Below the pieces are notes generated by a model. It saw only the letters and a program-made list of their open reading frames with translations. It made no database searches and was not told where the DNA came from. 64,000 bases of DNA from Somniosus microcephalus. Lineage: Eukaryota. Both the position numbers and the translations under genes were made by a program. Positions 1-10,090 of this stretch are shown piece by piece (the first letter of the stretch is position 1; the number at the start of each line of letters is the position of its first letter). The stretch lies in the NCBI GenBank assembly GCA_052327205.1, contig CM126203.1, positions 195,238,001 through 195,302,000 of the forward strand. The letters run 5' to 3'.

Positions 1-1329
1 ATGCTTCATGATGTTCCTGTTGGACCCATGGCTCTGATTGTATCTAAGCTGTGCAGGCATGGTGGGATAACAGAGGAGTGTCATCAGCCATGACTGTAGG
101 GCATATCCCTTGGTCCCTAGCAGCCATCCTCTGAAGTTCCTGGATGGATGGAAAAGTGTGGGATGGATGAGTGCTGCAAGGTGAAGGTGTCATGATAGCG
201 AAACTGCTTCACACTTGCATTATCCATCTGCTGTGATCACACATCTGTTGAGCATTAATGGAGTGGAAACCCTTCCTGTTCACAGAAGCTCCAGGATCTT
301 CTTCTGATGCCCTAAAAGCTACATGAATTCAGTTTATTATGCCACAACACAAGAGAAGCCAGCCACTGTGGCAAATATCAGAGCTCTCTTATTCTGGCTT
401 ATTGTGTCCATTATTTTGCTCTGGCAAGGAGGGCATTGGTGACCTGCATGATGCAGATGTGCACTGTCCCCTGATGATCCCTGCAGCAGACTGGAAGGAG
501 CTTGAGGAGAAAAAATTAAGGGCAGTGGTGACTTTGACACTCACTGGAATAATATGGCCTCTGGGTCCAGCAGGTAGCAAGTCTTGTTGCAGGATGCTGC
601 AAAGATCAGCATTAACCACCTGGAGAAGAACAGCTTCTTAATACAGTGCACCTCAGAGATATCCAGGAAAGTGACACTTGGCCTAAAGATCCTGTTGGCT
701 AAGTGGGGCCTTCTGTGAATTCAACCCCTCATTTGCAGTATTCTAACAAGCTCATCTGCTGCTTGTTTTGATTGTTGAGATTGCTGTTTCTCCTGTTGCT
801 GCTCCTCCTTCTCCAACTGCTCCTCCAATCAAAGCAATGAAGCAAAATTGGCACCCATGATGGGCTGTGACTACGTAATTAGGGTGAGTAATGCAGGAAA
901 TAATCAGAAAGAAGCAATCTGCATGCTCAAAAATGCCTAGGAAATCTACTAAGCACTGTAGTACACAGATCCCTATGATCTGAGTGCCTGCAGCTGAATG
1001 CTCCTTTAAATCTAGGTTCCAGTCATGTTAGCCAGTTTGCAAAGCCAATCTTGAAAGGTTTTACTTAGTGGTTTATCACTGGGTGGGATTTCTGACCTTT
1101 CCGGGTAAAATTGTGTCCGGGTCTTAATAACATCATAGGACTCCGATTTGCATGTAATAATGAAGCACCCACCTGTTCCCAGCAAGTGCATTTCCCACCA
1201 GTCAGCTCCCAAGTTAAAATGGCCGTCGGCGGGTTTCTGGCAGGAACGGGGCAGTAAGTTGGCTTTTTTTGTATTTTAACCCTTCACCCGTACCATTCCT
1301 GCTGGTCAGGTTGGGTTAAAATTAGGGCC
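1..1329 (-). mobile_element. Decayed PIF/Harbinger DNA transposon, right part (runs off window start), with transposase remnant at ~200-860
   Basis: Minus-strand peptides DLCSILQQDLLPAGPRGHIIPVSVKVTTALNFFSSSSFQ and VNRKGFHSINAQQMCDH match Harbinger transposase and the copy at 40815. Terminus ...GGGTTAAAATTAGGGCC is followed by TTA. Confidence 0.8.
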
Positions 1330-1985
1330 TTAAATATTCAAAATTATAATTGCACAAGTAAGAATACTAGTCCTAGATCTGCATTGCTGACCTTTACCTT
1401 CCTCCAGTCACAACAACCAAAATGAAGGTGGCCGGCTAGATTAGCCTTCCTTATATGGCAAAGGGAGAGAAAACCATGTGATTCTGGTTGAAAAATCCCC
1501 TAAAAATGGGCTACCTTTTCGGATTGTTTGTTGTACCCATGATAGGTGGAGAAATGGGAAGGATATATTAAGTTGCAGAACTTAAGCAGCCGACAAGATA
1601 TCCATGCTGTTACATCAGAAACTTTGGCCTGGAGATCCAACTTAGATATTGACATTTGATTTGCTTTGCTACTGCCATACAAAAGAAGAAGAAGTTGAAG
1701 AATGAAGTCACCTACTTTTAAAGGTTAGTAATCAACTTCTTGTTCCAGTGCTAGGAAAGTTTGATTGCATTTTTGGCTTTGTCTGATAGATCCTGTGAAA
1801 CAAATTTAGCTAATCTTACAGTATGATGTAGCTGGAGTGAAACTACACTAAATCATTATGCAGCTGAGTTTTGCCATAGCTTCTTAGGCTGAACCATACA
1901 GCACAGTGACAAGGTGGGCATTTTTCAGTGTTCTGTATGGCAATTTTAATAATCAAAGCTATTTTGGCATATGAGAATTATACCT

Positions 1986-2259
1986 GTTGGCCGTGTGGTG
2001 GATAGTGAGGAAGAAAGCTGCAGACTGCAGGAAGATATCAATGGACTGGTCAGGTGGGCAGAACAGTGGCAAATGGAATTCAATCTGGAGAAGTGTGAGG
2101 TAATGCATTTGGGGAGGGCTAATACGGCAAAGGAATGCACAATAAATGATAAGATACTGAAAAGTGTAGAGGAACAGAGGGACCTTGGAGTACATGTCCA
2201 CAGATGCCTGAAGGTAGCAGGACAGGTAGATAAGGTGGTTAAGAAGGCATATGGGATAT
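1986..2259 (+). mobile_element. CR1 LINE fragment (RT C-terminal part)
   Basis: LQEDINGLVRWAEQWQMEFNLEKCEVMHLG...RDLGVHV is a typical CR1 ORF2 segment. Confidence 0.9.
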
Positions 2260-3161
2260 TTTATAATAGGGCAGTGCTGTCGTCTTCTGTGATTTCATCT
2301 TATATTGGTGAGTCATTGACAGACAAAGGGTTATTTACACCTCACATATAACAGTTCCTTTTTTAAAAACAGTATCTTAAACTATTACCTAATCAACCAT
2401 GCAACATAGTTACAATTGTCATCACTGATTTATTAGTTTCTTTAATAAAATTCCATAGTGAGGGCAGTGATAATAGACTCTGAAAATGGTAAGGTGATTG
2501 GCTTGTAAGTTACTGCAGCTTCTGGTTTTACATGGTGACTAGACATGTGCAACTAAAATAAGATGGAAACATGCCAAAACCAAAATATTTGAATGAAAAC
2601 AAATATCAAAATGCTAACACCAAACAGTGTATTTGTCAAAAGGGATACAGTCGTGAGCTACAAGTGTTTCAATTAAATTAAAAAGGAGCATTAAGTATCA
2701 TGAACATAAAATACAGAAAAAGTAAAGGTAATCCTTATGTATTAATCATATTTACAAGGTAATTTGTTGGCAAACCTTCCAAATATATTAAATAGATTTG
2801 GTTGACTGTATTTCAGTAAGTGCATGTATAGATGAATGGTAGTTGTAATGCCAAATATTTTAGGCATGTATTATATTAAATATGTAGCACACATATTACA
2901 AAAGCAGAAATGCTAATTAATTTGCATCAATAGCAAAGCGACCTCATATTGAAATCAAAAAGTCAACTGTGAAATGTAAGATAAAATGGCTCATACAAAA
3001 GACCATTGAACAAATTGAAAGAAGAGCATGTTCATTTCAGGCAAATTAGCTATGACAAAGCTGAACCTAAGAAGCCATGTCCATAACATTTTGAGTGTGG
3101 CTCTTACAAAAGCCTGTTTTTGTAGAGATTATAGGGCCGATTTCTGTTAAAAAAACAGAAC

Positions 3162-6050
3162 GTGTCAGGAAGGGACAGAAGGTATGGAGTAAAAAGTCAA
3201 GTATTAAAAAGGGAAAAAACAGGAACTAAGTGTTACAAAACATATTTGAAAGTTCTTTATCTGAATGCACGTAGCATTCGTAACAAAATGAATGAGTTAA
3301 CGGCACAAATAACTACATATGGGTATGATCTTGTGGCCATTACAGAAACATGGCTGCAGGGTGACCATGACTGGGAATTAAACATACCAGGTTATTTAAC
3401 AATCAGGAAGGACAGGCAGGAAGGGAGAGGAGGTGGGGTGGCTATGTTAATAAAGGAAGGAATCACTATAATACAGAGAAATGATATTGGGTCAAAGAAC
3501 CAGGATAGTGAAACAGTTTGGGTGGAGATAAGGAATAATAAGGGGAAAAAAACACTAGTGTGTGTAGTCTATAGGCCTCCGAACAGTTGCAACTCTGTTG
3601 GACGGAGTATCAATCAGGAAATAGTTGAGGCTTGTAATAAGGGAACAGCAATAATGATGGGGGATTTTAATTATCATATTAACTGGACAAATCAAATTGG
3701 GCAGAGCAACCTTGAGGATCAGTTCATTGAGTGTATTAGGGATGGGTTTCTTGAGCAGTATGTAACTGAACCGACCAGGTGGCAAGCAACCTTAGATTTG
3801 GTCCTGTGTAATGAGACAGGATTAATTAAAAATGTCCTAGTAAAGGATCCCCTTGGAATGAGTGACCATAACATGGTTGAATTCCTTATTCAATTAGAGG
3901 GTGAGAAGGTTGGATCTCAAACAAGCATGCTGAGCTTGAATAAAGGAGACTGTGAAGGTATGAGAGCGGAATTGAGTAGAGTGGACTGGGAAAATAGATT
4001 AAAGGGTAAGACAGTACATGATCAGTGGTGTACATTTAAGGAGTTATTTTACAACTTCCAAAAAATATATATTCCGCTGAGGAAAAAAGGGTGTAAAAGA
4101 AAAGATAGCCATCCGTGGCTAAGTAAAGTAATTAAGGATAGTATCCGACTAAAAACAAGGGCATATAAGGTAGCCAAATCTAGTGGGAGGATGGAAGATT
4201 GGGAAGTCTTTAAAAGACAGCAAAAAATAACTAAAAGATTGATTAAGAAAGGGAAGATAGATTATGAAAGTAAATTAACAAAAAATATAAAAACAGACAG
4301 CAAAAGTTTCTATAGTTATATAAAAAGAAAAAGGGTGGCTAAAGTAAATGTTGGTCCCTTAGAGGATGAGACCGGGAAATTAATGGTGGGAAACATGGAG
4401 ATGGCAAAAACACTGAACAATTATTTTGTATCAGTCTTTACAGTAGAGGACACTAAGAATATCCCAACACTGGACAAACAGGGGGCTCTAGGGGGGGAGG
4501 AACTAAATACGATTAAAATCACTAAGGAAGTGGTACTTGGTAAAATAATGGGACTCAAGGCGGATAAATCCCCTGGACCTGATGGCTTGCATCCTAGGGT
4601 CTTGAGGGAAGTGGCGGGAGGGATTGTGGATGCATTGGTAATAATTTTCCAAAACTCACTGGACTCAGCAAAGGTCCCGGCAGATTGGAAAACTGCTAAT
4701 GTAACACCCTTATTTAAAAAGGGTAGTAGGCAGAAGGCTGGAAACTATAGACCTGTTAGCCTAACATCTGTGGTTGGTAAAATATTGGAGTCCATTATTA
4801 AGGAGACAGTAACGGGACATTTGGATAAACATAATTTAATAGGACAAACTCAGCATGGTTCCATGAAGGGGAAGTCATGTTTGACAAATTTGCTTGAGTT
4901 TTTTGAGGATGTAACATACAGAGTGGATAAAGGGGAACCAGTGGACGTAGTGTATTTAGACTTCCAAAAGGCATTTGACAAGGTGCCACACAAAAGATTA
5001 TTGCTCAAGATAAAAAATCACGGGATTGGGGGTAATATTCTGGCGTGGGTGGAGGATTGGCTCTCTAACAGAAAGCAGAGAGTTGGGATAAATGGTTCGT
5101 TCTCAGATTGGCAACCAGTAACTAGTGGTGTTCCGCAGGGGTCAGTGCTGGGTCCCCAACTCTTTACAATCTATATTAACGATTTGGAGGAGGGGACCGA
5201 GTGTAACAAATCAAAGTTTGCAGATGATACAAAGATGGGACGGAAAGTAGTGAGTGAGGAGGACATAAAAAACCTGCAAGGGGACATAGACAGGCTAAGT
5301 AAGTGGGCAGAGATTTGGCAGATGGAATACAATACTGGAAAGTGTGAGGTTATGCACTTTGGCAGGAAAAATCATAGAGCAAGTTATTATCTTAATGGCA
5401 AGAAACTGGAAAGTACTGTAGTACAAAGGGATCTGGGGGTCCTGGTGCACGAAACTCAAAAAGTTAGTGTGCAGCAAGTGATCAAGAAGGCCAATGGAAT
5501 GTTGGCTTTTATTGCTAGGGGAATGGAATATAAAAACAGGGAGGTATTGCTGCAGTTGTACAAGGTATTGGTGAGACCGCAACTGGAATACTGCATACAG
5601 TTTTGGTGTCCATACTTAAGAAAAGACATACTTGCTCTCGAGTCAGTACAAAGAAGGTTCACTCGGTTAATCCCGAGGATGAGAGGGTGGTCATATGAGA
5701 AGAGGTTGAGTAGATTGGGACTCTACTCATTGGAGTTCAGAAGAATGAGAGGCGATCTTATTGAAACATATAAGATTGTGAAGGGGCTTGATCGGGTGGA
5801 TGCGGTGAAGATGTTCCTAATGAAGGGTGAAACTAGAACTAGGGGGCATAATCTTAAAATAAGGGGCTGCTCTTTCAAAACTGAGATGAGGAGAAACTTC
5901 TTCACTCAGAGGGTGGTGGGTTTGTGGAATTTGCTGCCCCAGAAGGCTGTGGAAGCTCCATCATTAAATAAATTTAAAACAGAAATAGATAGTTTCCTAG
6001 AAGTAAAGGGAATTAAGGATTACGGGGAGCGGGCAGGAAATTGGACATGA
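3162..6050 (+). CDS. CR1 ORF2: APE endonuclease plus reverse transcriptase (962-aa open frame)
   Basis: APE motifs LNARS, AITETW, YRPP, GDFN, LDL, SDH. RT motifs NYRPVSLTS, YLDFQKAFDKV, GVPQGSVLGP, FADD. A few likely damaging changes (QHGS for QHGF; 2-codon deletion KVSVQQ vs KVSMQVQQ in sister copies). The true start is uncertain. Confidence 0.93.
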   Translation: MSGRDRRYGVKSQVLKREKTGTKCYKTYLKVLYLNARSIRNKMNELTAQITTYGYDLVAITETWLQGDHDWELNIPGYLTIRKDRQEGRGGGVAMLIKEGITIIQRNDIGSKNQDSETVWVEIRNNKGKKTLVCVVYRPPNSCNSVGRSINQEIVEACNKGTAIMMGDFNYHINWTNQIGQSNLEDQFIECIRDGFLEQYVTEPTRWQATLDLVLCNETGLIKNVLVKDPLGMSDHNMVEFLIQLEGEKVGSQTSMLSLNKGDCEGMRAELSRVDWENRLKGKTVHDQWCTFKELFYNFQKIYIPLRKKGCKRKDSHPWLSKVIKDSIRLKTRAYKVAKSSGRMEDWEVFKRQQKITKRLIKKGKIDYESKLTKNIKTDSKSFYSYIKRKRVAKVNVGPLEDETGKLMVGNMEMAKTLNNYFVSVFTVEDTKNIPTLDKQGALGGEELNTIKITKEVVLGKIMGLKADKSPGPDGLHPRVLREVAGGIVDALVIIFQNSLDSAKVPADWKTANVTPLFKKGSRQKAGNYRPVSLTSVVGKILESIIKETVTGHLDKHNLIGQTQHGSMKGKSCLTNLLEFFEDVTYRVDKGEPVDVVYLDFQKAFDKVPHKRLLLKIKNHGIGGNILAWVEDWLSNRKQRVGINGSFSDWQPVTSGVPQGSVLGPQLFTIYINDLEEGTECNKSKFADDTKMGRKVVSEEDIKNLQGDIDRLSKWAEIWQMEYNTGKCEVMHFGRKNHRASYYLNGKKLESTVVQRDLGVLVHETQKVSVQQVIKKANGMLAFIARGMEYKNREVLLQLYKVLVRPQLEYCIQFWCPYLRKDILALESVQRRFTRLIPRMRGWSYEKRLSRLGLYSLEFRRMRGDLIETYKIVKGLDRVDAVKMFLMKGETRTRGHNLKIRGCSFKTEMRRNFFTQRVVGLWNLLPQKAVEAPSLNKFKTEIDSFLEVKGIKDYGERAGNWT

Positions 6051-6164
6051 GTCTCGGTTCGGAATGGTCATGGCCCTGTGGGTAGTGGAGTGGGCCCAGG
6101 GGCTGTGTAGCCTGGTTCTGCTCCTACTGTGTTCTAATTCTGTGTTAGATTTCAGGAGATGGTT

Positions 6165-6375
6165 TTATTCCTGTTCCTGGCTGGGGTGGAGATCGCCTTT
6201 ACAGAAGGTAAGTACTGTAGAAAATATAGGGACAGAGTGATCTCCTGGAAGAATTTCGATCGCCGAGATGGGTCAGAGAGGAATTTCCCAGATTTTTTTC
6301 TCCCAAATTGGCCATTGGGTCTTCATCTGGTTTTTCGCCTCTCCCGGGAGATCACATGGGTTCGGGTGGATGCAG
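6165..6375 (+). ncRNA. Candidate structured RNA module in the CR1 3' UTR
   Basis: Helices 6237-6248/6344-6355 (12 bp, one G-U), 6276-6281/6338-6343, 6288-6293/6325-6330, 6302-6306/6315-6319, and a second domain 6171-6178/6228-6235. The segment is absent from the sister copy. Confidence 0.55.
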
Positions 6376-7397
6376 AGTGATAGAAGATTTGAGGTTAGGA
6401 TCAGATCAGCCATGATCTTATTGAATGGTGGAGCAGGCTCGAGGGGCCGATTGGCCTACTCCTACTCCCATTTCTTATGTTCCTGGCATTGAAGCAGTGG
6501 GACCAGAGAGTAGCAAGCTTAATGCTCACCAACATAGTTCTGGGACCCTTGTCCACTTCAACATACAGGCGGACCAGAGAAAAAGAGGTTCTGGGCAGGG
6601 CTTTAATGCCGTTATAAGGTGACCAGAAGTCTACTCTCATGTTCTGGTGCAGCCTGGAGGAAAATCCAACACCGATCTTTCCAGCGTCCCTCTGGATAAG
6701 GTTCTGGTCCTCACTTTGCTAACTTGGGCCAATTTGGAAAATCAAATGGACAATCACAGATATTAACCAGGCTACTGTGCCATCAGACTGCGATAAAGAA
6801 CATTTAGAAAAAAGCTGTTCCACTCGATCTTGGCACAAACATTTGGCACATTTTAAGGAAATTCATTGTGCATACTTAGAGCTAGGCAAAGCGAGAGAGT
6901 GCCTTTTATGTTAAAACATGACACACTGTTAAAGACAAATCTCATTTTTTAAAATAAAGTAGATTTGTTAGGTGAAATTAAATTCCTTTTAAAGGGTTTT
7001 TCAATACAAGAGGACGACCTAAATTGCAGGATGTGAACAAAAGTCCTCAATGATTGATGACAAAAAAGTGAGTAATTTTTGTTTTCTTCAATGTCAATGA
7101 AGTTAGTGATGTGAGTTGTGACTGACCTTAATTAAAGTACAGCAGCTCTTCATTGTCACAGAATTGTTCTCCAGTCTCAAAAAAAGGAGTTAAGGAAACG
7201 CCAAGTGGTTCATCCATCAAAATATTTTCTATCCAGAAGACCCAGTATTAAAGTTATAATAGCCAAGGGCGATTTCCAGAATGTGTGATTTCTACCACTT
7301 TTCCGTGGCTTTTTGCCAATTATAAACCTTGAACTTAATGACAAAGCACAAAGATCAGTGGTGTGAATACACAAATTAACCAAAAGGGGTCACCAAG

Positions 7398-10090
7398 AGA
7401 ACATAAGAACATAAGAAATAGGAGCAGCAGTAGGCCAATCGGCCCCTCGAGCCTGCTCCGCCATTCAATAAGATCATGGCTGATCTGATCCTAACCGCCA
7501 ATCTACTATCACTGAACCATCTCCTGAATCTAACAGAATTAGACACACGAAATAGGAGCAGGATCAGGCTACATGGCCCCTGGGCCCGCTCCGCTACCCA
7601 CAGGGCCATGACCGATCCGAACCTAGACTCATGTCCAAATTCCTGCCCGTTCCCCATAACCCTTTATTCCCTTTACTTCTAGGAAACTGTCTATTTCTGT
7701 TTTAAATTTATGTAATGATGTAGCTTCTACAGCTTTTTGGGGCAGCATATTCCATGGACTGTATGCAGTATTCCAGGTGCGGTCTCACCAATACCTTGTA
7801 CAACTGAAGCAATACCTCCCTATTTTTATATTCTATCCCCCTAGCAATGAAAGCCAACATTCCATTGGCCTTCTTAATCACTTGCTGCACCTGCATACTA
7901 ACCTTTTGAGTTTCGTGCACCAGGACCCCCAGATCCCTTTGTACTTCAGTACTTTCCAGTTTCTTGCCATTAAGATAATAACTTGCTCTACGATTTTTCC
8001 TGCCAAAGTGCATAACCTCACACTTTCCAGTATTGTATTCCATCTGCCAAGTCTCTGCCCACTTACTTAGCCTGTCTATGTCTCCTTGCAGGTTTTTTAT
8101 GTCCTCCTCACTCACTACTTTCCCTCCCATCTTAGTATCATCTGCAAACTTTGATATGTTACACTCGGTCCCCTCCTCCAAATCATTAATATAGATTGTA
8201 AAGAGTTGGGGACCCAGCACTGACCCCTGTGGAACACCACTAGTTACTGATTGCCAGTCCGAGAATGAACCATTTATCCCAACTCTCTGCCTTCTGTTAG
8301 ATAGCCAATCCTCTATCCATGCCAGAATATTACCCCCAATCCCGTGATTTTTTATCTTAAGCAATAATCTTTTGTGTGGCACCTAGTCACATGCCTTTTG
8401 GAAGTCTAAATACACTACGTCCACTGGTTCCCCTTTATCCACCCTATATGTTACTTCCTGAAAGAACTCCAGCAAATTTGTCAAACATGACTTCCCCTTC
8501 ATAAAACCATGCTGACTTTCTCCTATTAAATTATGATTATCCAAATGTCCTGTTACTGTCTCCTTAATAATGGACTCCAATATTTTACCTACCACAGATG
8601 TTAGGCTAACCGGTCTATAGTTTCCAGCCTTCTGTCGACTGCCCTTTTTAAGTAAGGGCGTTACATTAGCAGTTTTCCAGTCTGCCGGGACCTTTGCTGA
8701 TTCCAGGGAGTTTTGGAAAATTATTACCAATGCATCCACAATCCCTACCGCCACTTCCCTCAAGAGCCTAGGATGTAATCATCAGGTCCAGGTGATTTAT
8801 TCGCCTTGAGTCCCATTATTTTACCGAGTACCACTTCCTTAGTGATTTTGATCGTGTTTAGCTCCTCCCCCCCTATAGCCCCCTGTTTGTCCAGTGTTGG
8901 GATATTCTTAGTGTCTTCTACTGTAAAGACTGATGCAAAATATTCATTCAGTGTTTTTGCCATCTCCATATTTCCCACCATTAATTTCCCGGTCTCATCC
9001 TCTAAGGGACCAACATTTACTTTAGCCACCCTTTTTCTTTTTATATAACTATAAAAACTCTTACTATCTGTTTTTATATTTTTTGCTAATTTATTTTCAT
9101 AATCTATCTTCCCTTTCTTAATCAATCTTTTTGTTACTTTTTGCTGTCTTTTAAAGTTTTCCCAATCCTCTATCCTCCCACTAGATTTGGCTACCTTATA
9201 TGCCCTTGTTTTTAGTCGAATACTATCCTTAATTTCTTTACTTAGCCACGGATGGCTGTCTTTTCTTTTACACCCTTTTCTTCTCAGTGGAATATATATT
9301 TTTTGGAAGTTGTAAAATAACTCCTTAAATGTACACCACTGATCATGTATCGTCTTACCCTTTAATCTATTTTACCAATCCACTCTACTCAATTCCACTC
9401 TCATACCTTCATAGTCTCCTTTATTCAAGCTTAGCACGCTTGTTTGAGATCCAACCTTCTCACCCTCTAATTGAATATGGAATTCAACCATGTTATGGTC
9501 ACTCATTCCAAGGGGATCCTTTACTAGGACATTTTTAATTAATCCTGTCTCGTTACACAGGACCAGATCTAAGGTTGCTTGCCCCCTGGTTGGTTCAGTT
9601 ACATACTGCTCAAGAAACCCATCCCTAATACACTCAATGAACTCATCCTCAAGGCAGCCCTGCCCAATTTGATTTGTCCAATTAATATGATAGTTAAAAT
9701 CCCCCATAATTATAGATGTTCCCTTATTACAAGCCTCAACTATTTCCTGATTGATACTCCGTCCAACAGAGTTGCCACTGTTCGGAGGCCTATAGACTAC
9801 GCCCACTAGTGTTTTTTTCCCCTTATTATTCCTTACCTCCACCCAAACTGTTTCATTATCCTGATCTTTTGACCCAATATCATTTCTCTGTATTACAGTG
9901 ATTCCTTCCTTTATTAACATAGCCACCCCACCTCCCCTTCCTTCCTGCCTGTCCTTCCTGATCGTTTAATAACCTGGTATGTTTAATTCCCAGGCATTGT
10001 CACCCTGCAGCCATGTTTCTGTAATGGCCACAAGATCATACCCATATGTAGTTATTTGTGCCATTAACTCGTCTATTTTGTTACGAATGC
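7398..10090 (-). mobile_element. CR1 LINE, sister of the 3150 copy; 5'-truncated, disrupted ORF2, ~320-bp internal deletion near 7755
   Basis: ORF pieces 9372-9926, 8760-9125, 8383-8763 and 7708-8382 are nearly identical to the 3162 ORF2. The tail reads GAACATAAGAACATAAG on the + strand. Deletion junction YCIQ|SMEYAAP. Confidence 0.95.

Follow-up and report, generated by a model that had tools for sequence, protein, structure and literature searches.

A structured core captured from an older CR1 family in the 3' UTR of a young CR1 of Somniosus microcephalus, with a predicted fold resembling poly(A) clamps

Two copies of a young CR1 element that lie close together in the genome of Somniosus microcephalus (6.4 Gb) differ in their 3' untranslated region (UTR), where one carries about 210 nt that its sister lacks; they raise the question of what this stretch is, where it came from, and what it might do. 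Both lie in the window analysed here, which comprises 64,000 nt of contig CM126203.1 (assembly GCA_052327205.1, positions 195,238,001 to 195,302,000 of the forward strand); all window positions below count from its first letter.

On alignment, 6165-6375 of the long copy (211 nt) is swapped for one C in the short one, a net difference of 210 nt, as a preliminary description of this DNA had given it. That description regarded the stretch as a single optional RNA module; optional it is, but not a single unit, since 6170-6211 is the decayed end of the ORF2 of another CR1. Exact junctions occur genome-wide in 9,641 copies with the module (long form) and in 805 without it (short form; 12 to 1; reversed controls 0), and both forms have thus spread. 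All 40 scored hits to the segment are 99-100% identical, and all 30 fetched loci hold it in the same place. The tree holds 53 long copies (the 59 of 71 long loci with both anchors, minus six that were too short) next to 15 short and two one-tail ones, and in it the short copies form one clade with a support of 100/100; as the root among the long copies is unresolved, the tree does not settle deletion versus insertion, and the short form is probably a deletion from the long form. A spliced intron, of which the short form would be the product, is rejected: the missing stretch begins with TT, has one C in its place and shows no GT...AG. The sister copies themselves (3274-5601 on the plus and 7758-10090 on the minus strand) face each other with their tails at a distance of about 920 nt. 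With 94% identity over 2.3 kb they form a long inverted repeat, from which read-through would make dsRNA; the minus-strand copy is without about 320 nt of ORF2, at a junction (7755-7757, minus strand) that occurs only once genome-wide. A 105-aa open frame without a Pfam hit (6401-6718, minus strand) enters the element's tail.

The host of the long segment has both ORF2 domains (RVT_1, E 3e-29; Exo_endo_phos, E 2e-13; Pfam) and two consecutive tails, which align to each other with a score of 74, reached by 0 of 500 shuffles; the four other CR1 ends within the window have a single tail each. The host tails resemble those of shark and ray elements that we take to be HER1. Host and donor alike have the traits of CR1-type LINEs: a 3' hairpin tail with a microsatellite, 5'-truncated copies, and no poly(A). 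The name HER1 is a bare entry in the accessible part of PMC3747384.

Table 1. Features of the long CR1 copy and its sister in the window.
Feature	Position	Strand	Remarks
Open frame of host young CR1 ORF2	3135..6050	+	971 aa between stops; codes for endonuclease and reverse transcriptase
Tail 1, decayed first copy of host 3' tail	6048..6142	+	aligns to tail 2
Spacer	6143..6169	+	weak alignment to donor ORF2; short-subfamily junction at 6164
Decayed last codons and stop of donor ORF2	6170..6211	+	aligns to donor A majority, with frameshift
Hairpin upstream of the core, within captured former-ORF and spacer sequence	6171..6235	+	stem 6171-6178/6228-6235, one G-U; outside conserved core; flanks differ between donor subfamilies
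Splice-donor-like motif AAG/GTAAGT	6205..6213	+	overlaps donor Arg codon and stop
Conserved core, 119 nt, closed by stem P1	6237..6355	+	P1 6237-6248/6344-6355, one G-U; covariance model, folding
Hairpin P2 with bulged G at three-way junction	6258..6274	+	predicted in majorities A, E and Y and in L191, L204, L258
ENE-like arm	6276..6343	+	P3, lower U-rich loop, P4, upper U-rich loop, P5
P3	6276-6281/6338-6343	+	GAGAGG/CCTCTC helix
Lower U-rich loop	6282-6287/6331-6337	+	
P4	6288-6293/6325-6330	+	
Upper U-rich loop	6294-6301/6320-6324	+	disrupted in window copy (U-to-C changes)
P5	6302-6306/6315-6319	+	
Residual donor 3' UTR	6356..6378	+	cut before donor's own tail
Tail 2, host-type 3' tail with TTCTTATG-type repeat; insertion end	6379..6483	+	30/30 loci end here
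Sister copy, short subfamily	7400..10090	-	module junction 7514-7515

The origin of the segment is seen in its older relatives. A 17-letter pattern from the core occurs in 1,155 exact copies in the genome, and the 95 loci fetched with core-pattern searches divide into 41 of the young family and 54 older ones; the latter belong to another CR1 family, whose ORF2 ends in LFLAGAEITSYRR-stop and is followed by the core and then by a different tail. Among 48 old copies, a count that leaves out five GGAAGG-variant loci and one truncated young copy, the donor ORF end is present in 29, the donor tail in 37, and at least one of the two in 44 (reversed controls 0). The ORF2 ends of donor and host share 46% identity. 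The captured stretch is the last ORF2 codons and the 3' UTR core of this older CR1 family, lying between two young-CR1 tails. A MITE insertion, the other origin rejected for the segment, is at odds with its architecture: its inverted repeat (6237-6355) lies 72 and 20 nt in from the two segment ends, and target duplications are absent at those ends; nor does the core occur as free-standing MITE copies, as 44 of the 48 old copies keep the donor ORF end, the donor tail or both, and 30 of 30 young copies hold it in the same place. On the simplest account, transcription of a one-tail host would have run on into a fragment of the donor, with another host-type tail coming after it; in one branch the 210 nt would later have been lost, giving rise to the short subfamily.

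Some further loci show the donor in other surroundings. At L046:1500-1800, a donor copy is directly followed by a host-type ORF end and tail, a neighbour pair of a kind that could seed such a chimera. Second module copies lie near fetched ones at L158:530-651, L064:1999-2119 and L283:600-746; two of these three are the more decayed, which suggests further old subfamilies. The donor stretch is covered by contigs of four other organisms. In sequencing run X1 (organism A), the summed contig depth reaches 15,000-54,000 over most of the core (L163:1846-1977; 6,900 in one bin) and 50-6,200 beside it, and a loose end shared by 14 contigs, just before the first P1 base, matches the start of a host-type tail 1 (25/30, by eye); a relative may have kept the core alone. 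The tail-1/core fusion hinted at there has 0 matches in the genome of S. microcephalus.

The splice-donor-like motif that had been placed inside the upstream hairpin is indeed present; 6170-6211 aligns to the donor's last codons, and the motif therefore overlaps an Arg codon and the stop of the donor. The form AG-GTARGT stands at the ORF2 stop in all six subfamily majorities, despite diverging downstream sequence, and could be either a U1 site or mere stop-codon context; among the read joints listed, none starts from AAG/GTAAGT. In the upstream hairpin, three substitutions made after capture improve the pairing, as judged by eye.

Within the segment, the covariance model finds the core at 123.7 bits, its only strong hit in the window. 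The core is more stable than shuffled sequences (z -3.7; 1 of 200 as good), and the whole stretch 6160-6385 is not (z -1.4; 23 of 200 as good). All helices named in the preliminary description are present, and both mismatches are G-U pairs on the LINE-sense strand, as it had said. As a fold of the window copy, its proposal holds in part: ViennaRNA gives pair probabilities of 0.80-1.0 for the closing stem and 0.95-0.99 for the upstream hairpin, but of about 0 for the three inner helices, because an alternative fold is better by 4.3 kcal/mol (-43.9 versus -48.2 kcal/mol). The inner helices do form in the predicted folds of the young-family majority (Y, 29 copies) and of the donor majorities A and E, and these three share one layout, in which P1, P2 and P3 are followed by a U-rich loop, P4, a second U-rich loop and P5; the two paired U-rich internal loops, flanked by G-C stems and, like the G-U pairs, on the LINE-sense strand, are absent from the preliminary description, which had named stability as one of three possible roles. 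Of the 31 long copies that could be scored (11 others could not), 18 have the upper of these loops intact, 10 have it broken as in the window copy, and three have it otherwise changed; the loop is broken in the youngest long branch, and the window copy, whose upper loop is broken, is thus probably a weakened version. No Rfam family at E<=10 covers the module, in keeping with the earlier inability to name one; at that threshold, window positions 4000-10000 and eight loci gave chance hits only.

The five donor subfamilies A-E, represented by 18-29 copies each that were chosen as best hits and are not a random sample, have the core just after the ORF2 stop, within differing flanks. Mean identity to the own majority is 0.79-0.92 in the donor subfamilies and 0.99 in the young family. 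The majorities B, C and D, which are noisier and have longer flanks, fold otherwise; a single donor copy (L163) folds by itself into the core topology (z -4.5). With 32 raw copies, RNAalifold recovers only P1, and covariation among these 32 copies of the genome is not above that of shuffles, 75 of 500 being as high; sliding the partner strands against each other halves the pairing. P2 is paired in 89% of cells of the model alignment, the outer P1 pairs vary across subfamilies between U-A, U-G and C-G, and a realignment of P4 hints at a change of U-A to or from G-C; as this realignment is noisy, we do not claim covariation in P4. Not only the pairing, but also the sequence is preserved in P2 and in the AAUUU and AUUGG stretches. 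In subfamily C (L282-L299), the majority P2 loop is the extra-stable tetraloop C(UUCG)G, and subfamilies D and E have P2 loop forms that resemble a CpG-decayed tetraloop.

The preliminary description pointed to a variant of P3 with GGAAGG/CCTTCC in amphibian and turtle CR1s. In the genome of S. microcephalus, GGAAGG has five matches, which we read as decayed copies without a change in the partner strand. A scan with the 5' strand of this variant alone yields 93 loci elsewhere (89 metagenomic and 4 viral). In exactly four of them (L191, L194, L204, L258), the P2 strand lies upstream, and these same four also contain a U-tract with the complementary P3 strand after it; the remaining 89 have neither the P2 strand nor the U-tract and P3 partner. 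The variant thus exists and covaries, with the whole layout in four of the 93 anchored foreign loci. These four are counted as one lineage because they are 78-95% alike. L191 carries a CR1 ORF2 fragment (E 2e-14) that resembles amniote sequences and is presumably bird-like. Folded independently, L191 (z -2.4), L258 (z -3.5) and L204 adopt the core layout with a single U-rich loop, and L194 differs in P1 and P2. Three of seven P3 pairs are changed on both sides, and none of 500 shuffles attains the covariation score; the model alignment behind this result is fitted to the structure, contains one spurious row and has its score inflated by relatedness. By a covariance model built from this genome only, the four foreign loci score 15-18 bits, level with chance anchored loci; by model score they rank 2, 3, 5 and 6 of 42 (E 0.014-0.07), and a comparison of covariance and sequence-only models gives no score separation of the foreign homologues from chance. 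No module was seen at the matches in prokaryote genomes (16) and in viral contigs (4, 0 and 8). For amphibians, what the trimmed alignment in the supplement of PMC4316615 retains of P3 in Xenopus CR1-2_XT is its 3' strand alone; of the suggested amphibian and turtle occurrence, only this strand in Xenopus is borne out. The core, carried by five donor subfamilies and by four amniote-like contigs of one lineage, is supported as the conserved and structured element of CR1 3' UTRs that it had been proposed to be.

Two of the foreign contigs (L194:772-1245 and L204:831-1305, both minus strand) have three tandem units about 174 nt apart, which decay in order and follow a 163-aa frame that has no Pfam hit above the cut-off and is not a CR1 ORF2. 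The second unit, in L191 and L204, has lost P2 and retains the U-loop arm.

What the core might do is suggested by its predicted fold, which resembles U-rich poly(A) clamps and by this likeness points to protection of the LINE RNA. ENEs are stems around paired U-rich loops with adjacent G-C pairs, and double-domain ENEs have two such loops and a short duplex, as given in the portions consulted of two reviews (PMC7583470, PMC13541005); G-C pairs beside the loops are named as an ENE feature in the accessible parts of Brown 2020 and Li 2025 (PMC12501189). In the core, G-C occupies the two uppermost pair positions of P3 (18 and 19 of the 21 alignment rows), a C/G stem stands above the upper loop, and the two loops are split by a short duplex in donor A, donor E and the long family, with a single loop in the foreign loci; the 5' side of the lower loop has only 3-4 U. 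A strict stem/U-loop/stem scan, tried on 10 loci, matches six, namely L051, L062 and the foreign four; it misses the donor copies L163, L158, L117 and L314 as well as the window copy, and 205 kb of control loci yield 0 matches. We put at about one half the probability that the core is an ENE-like double U-rich loop which likely clamps the poly(A) tail in a triple helix and slows RNA decay. The two loops would grip the transcript's own tail as a triple helix, and the clamp would slow the decay of the intronless LINE transcript. For a plant retrotransposon, Li 2025 in the part available (PMC12501189) describes such an effect: the corresponding structure within Evade binds A20, prevents deadenylation and increases transposition.

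The tail to be gripped would have to be present in the RNA. In the DNA copy, the core ends 128 nt before the end of the element, and neither an A-run of at least 5 nor AATAAA occurs in any of the six majorities; vertebrate CR1 copies without poly(A) tails are on record in the accessible text of PMC13343379. The loose read ends listed at the tail, which come from short cDNA reads of mixed copies and could miss a tail added after transcription, continue as microsatellite and not as poly(A). Two RNA runs cover the module at a depth of about 280-890, a coverage that does not in itself point to autonomous sense RNA, and the strong strand bias in one of them may be antisense read-through. It also speaks against the clamp reading that the module is dispensable, as short copies and one-tail relatives have multiplied in its absence. 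A wider form of the clamp reading is tentative and less likely than not: jawed-vertebrate CR1s would carry ENE-type clamps of their own, with an added three-way junction, kept since the lineage of S. microcephalus and that of amniotes parted; the tail would never be copied into DNA, and the clamp would pass between LINE families as a portable fitness module, would have helped the chimera to some 10,000 copies and would have been reused in tandem behind an amniote gene.

The core could also be a real structure that binds not poly(A), but a protein, for instance ORF1p or a host factor acting in RNA export or stability, a reading that we hold to be rather unlikely. Intronless RNAs need help with export, and a protein would account for the conservation of sequence as well as pairing in P2, AAUUU and AUUGG and for the three-way junction, which has no role in the ENE model; against it, each of the two internal loops is rich in U on either strand, with flanking G-C stems, and it is P2 that the second tandem unit dropped and the U-loop arm that it kept.

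Whether the core is still of use to the young family is a separate matter, on which the changes since capture bear. Relative to the majority of donor A, which may not be the exact donor, the helices in three long-family age groups, which are not independent of one another, are changed at 1, 3 and 2 of 64 sites (one of these changes being forced by the sampling pattern), and the captured flanks, in the same order, at 16, 15 and 17 of 90 (helix versus flank, p 0.0012, 0.024 and 0.0028; helix versus loop, p 0.09, 0.30 and 0.02). Since the changes in the former ORF include a frameshift, they postdate the capture, and over that time the helices were kept. That the core was once functional in the donor family and is a neutral passenger in the young chimera, which we regard as improbable, would agree with the amplification of the short form to 805 exact-junction copies; with the broken upper loop of the youngest long branch and the different fold of the window copy; and with the weakness of the helix-loop difference in two of three age groups. 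It is opposed by the far lower number of changes in helices than in captured flanks, by the twelvefold excess of the long form and, as a weak hint, by the contig depth in organism A, which peaks on the core alone.

Recognition of the RNA by the ORF2 protein, one of the functions suggested at the outset, would suit a core in the 3' UTR, the site of the recognition signal in stringent LINEs according to the part of PMC4176376 consulted; as that signal is there a terminal stem-loop, specific to its family, this role is very unlikely for an upstream element, the more so as 30 of 30 loci end in a host-type tail, the core has passed between families with 46% identity at their ORF2 ends, and copies without it transpose. 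A self-cleaving ribozyme, suggested likewise and in keeping with a compact multi-helix fold and conserved junction bases, can be set aside almost entirely, with no hammerhead core on either strand of the six majorities, no match to a ribozyme family of Rfam at E<=10, no accumulation of read ends (an insensitive test), and a cleavage that would presumably part ORF2 from the priming tail.

If the poly(A)-clamp reading of the core is true, LINEs are a new home for ENEs, which are known from viruses, from MALAT1 and MEN-beta, and mainly from plant and fungal transposons. The accessible portions of the ENE reviews (PMC7583470, PMC13541005) give as sources plants, fungi, slime mould and stickleback retroviruses, and no LINE; the literature searched, to which the primary ENE papers and the repeat databases did not belong, ties no ENE to CR1 or another LINE, and the core motif strings were not found in the full-text literature, nor matched in the supplement of PMC11303007. 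CR1 LINEs would then rely on a poly(A) tail of which their DNA copies bear no trace, and a function would be given to a region of the 3' UTR that is usually discarded from alignments; that of Suh 2015, as far as available (PMC4316615), omits the ORF2/UTR boundary. The sister subfamilies, with intact, broken and deleted modules on a near-identical backbone, form a natural experiment.

Among known elements, the 3' terminal hairpin and microsatellite of CR1 (Suh 2015, PMC4316615, in the part available) are present here as the decayed tail 1 and as tail 2, and the core is a separate, upstream element. With the triple helices of MALAT1 and MEN-beta, the core has in common a vertebrate U-rich internal loop near the RNA 3' end; unlike them, it is without a genomic A-rich strand downstream and without an Rfam match. 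The single-domain ENE of KSHV PAN is matched by the amniote-like homologues in the one U-rich loop, the purine/pyrimidine lower stem and the C/G upper stem; in contrast to it, these are cellular, repeat-derived and arranged in tandem units, the first of which has an extra hairpin at the junction. From the double ENEs of rice hAT TWIFB1 and Arabidopsis Evade/Copia93, the core differs in its vertebrate non-LTR host, in DNA copies without poly(A), in being known from sequence alone, in a lower loop that begins with AA on the 5' side, and in the added three-way junction of P1 and P2, which is absent from the accessible portions of the ENE reviews. With these same double ENEs, as described in the available parts of PMC12501189, PMC7583470 and PMC13541005, it shares the two U-rich loops, the short duplex, the loop-side G-C pairs and the place after the ORF of an intronless transposon RNA.
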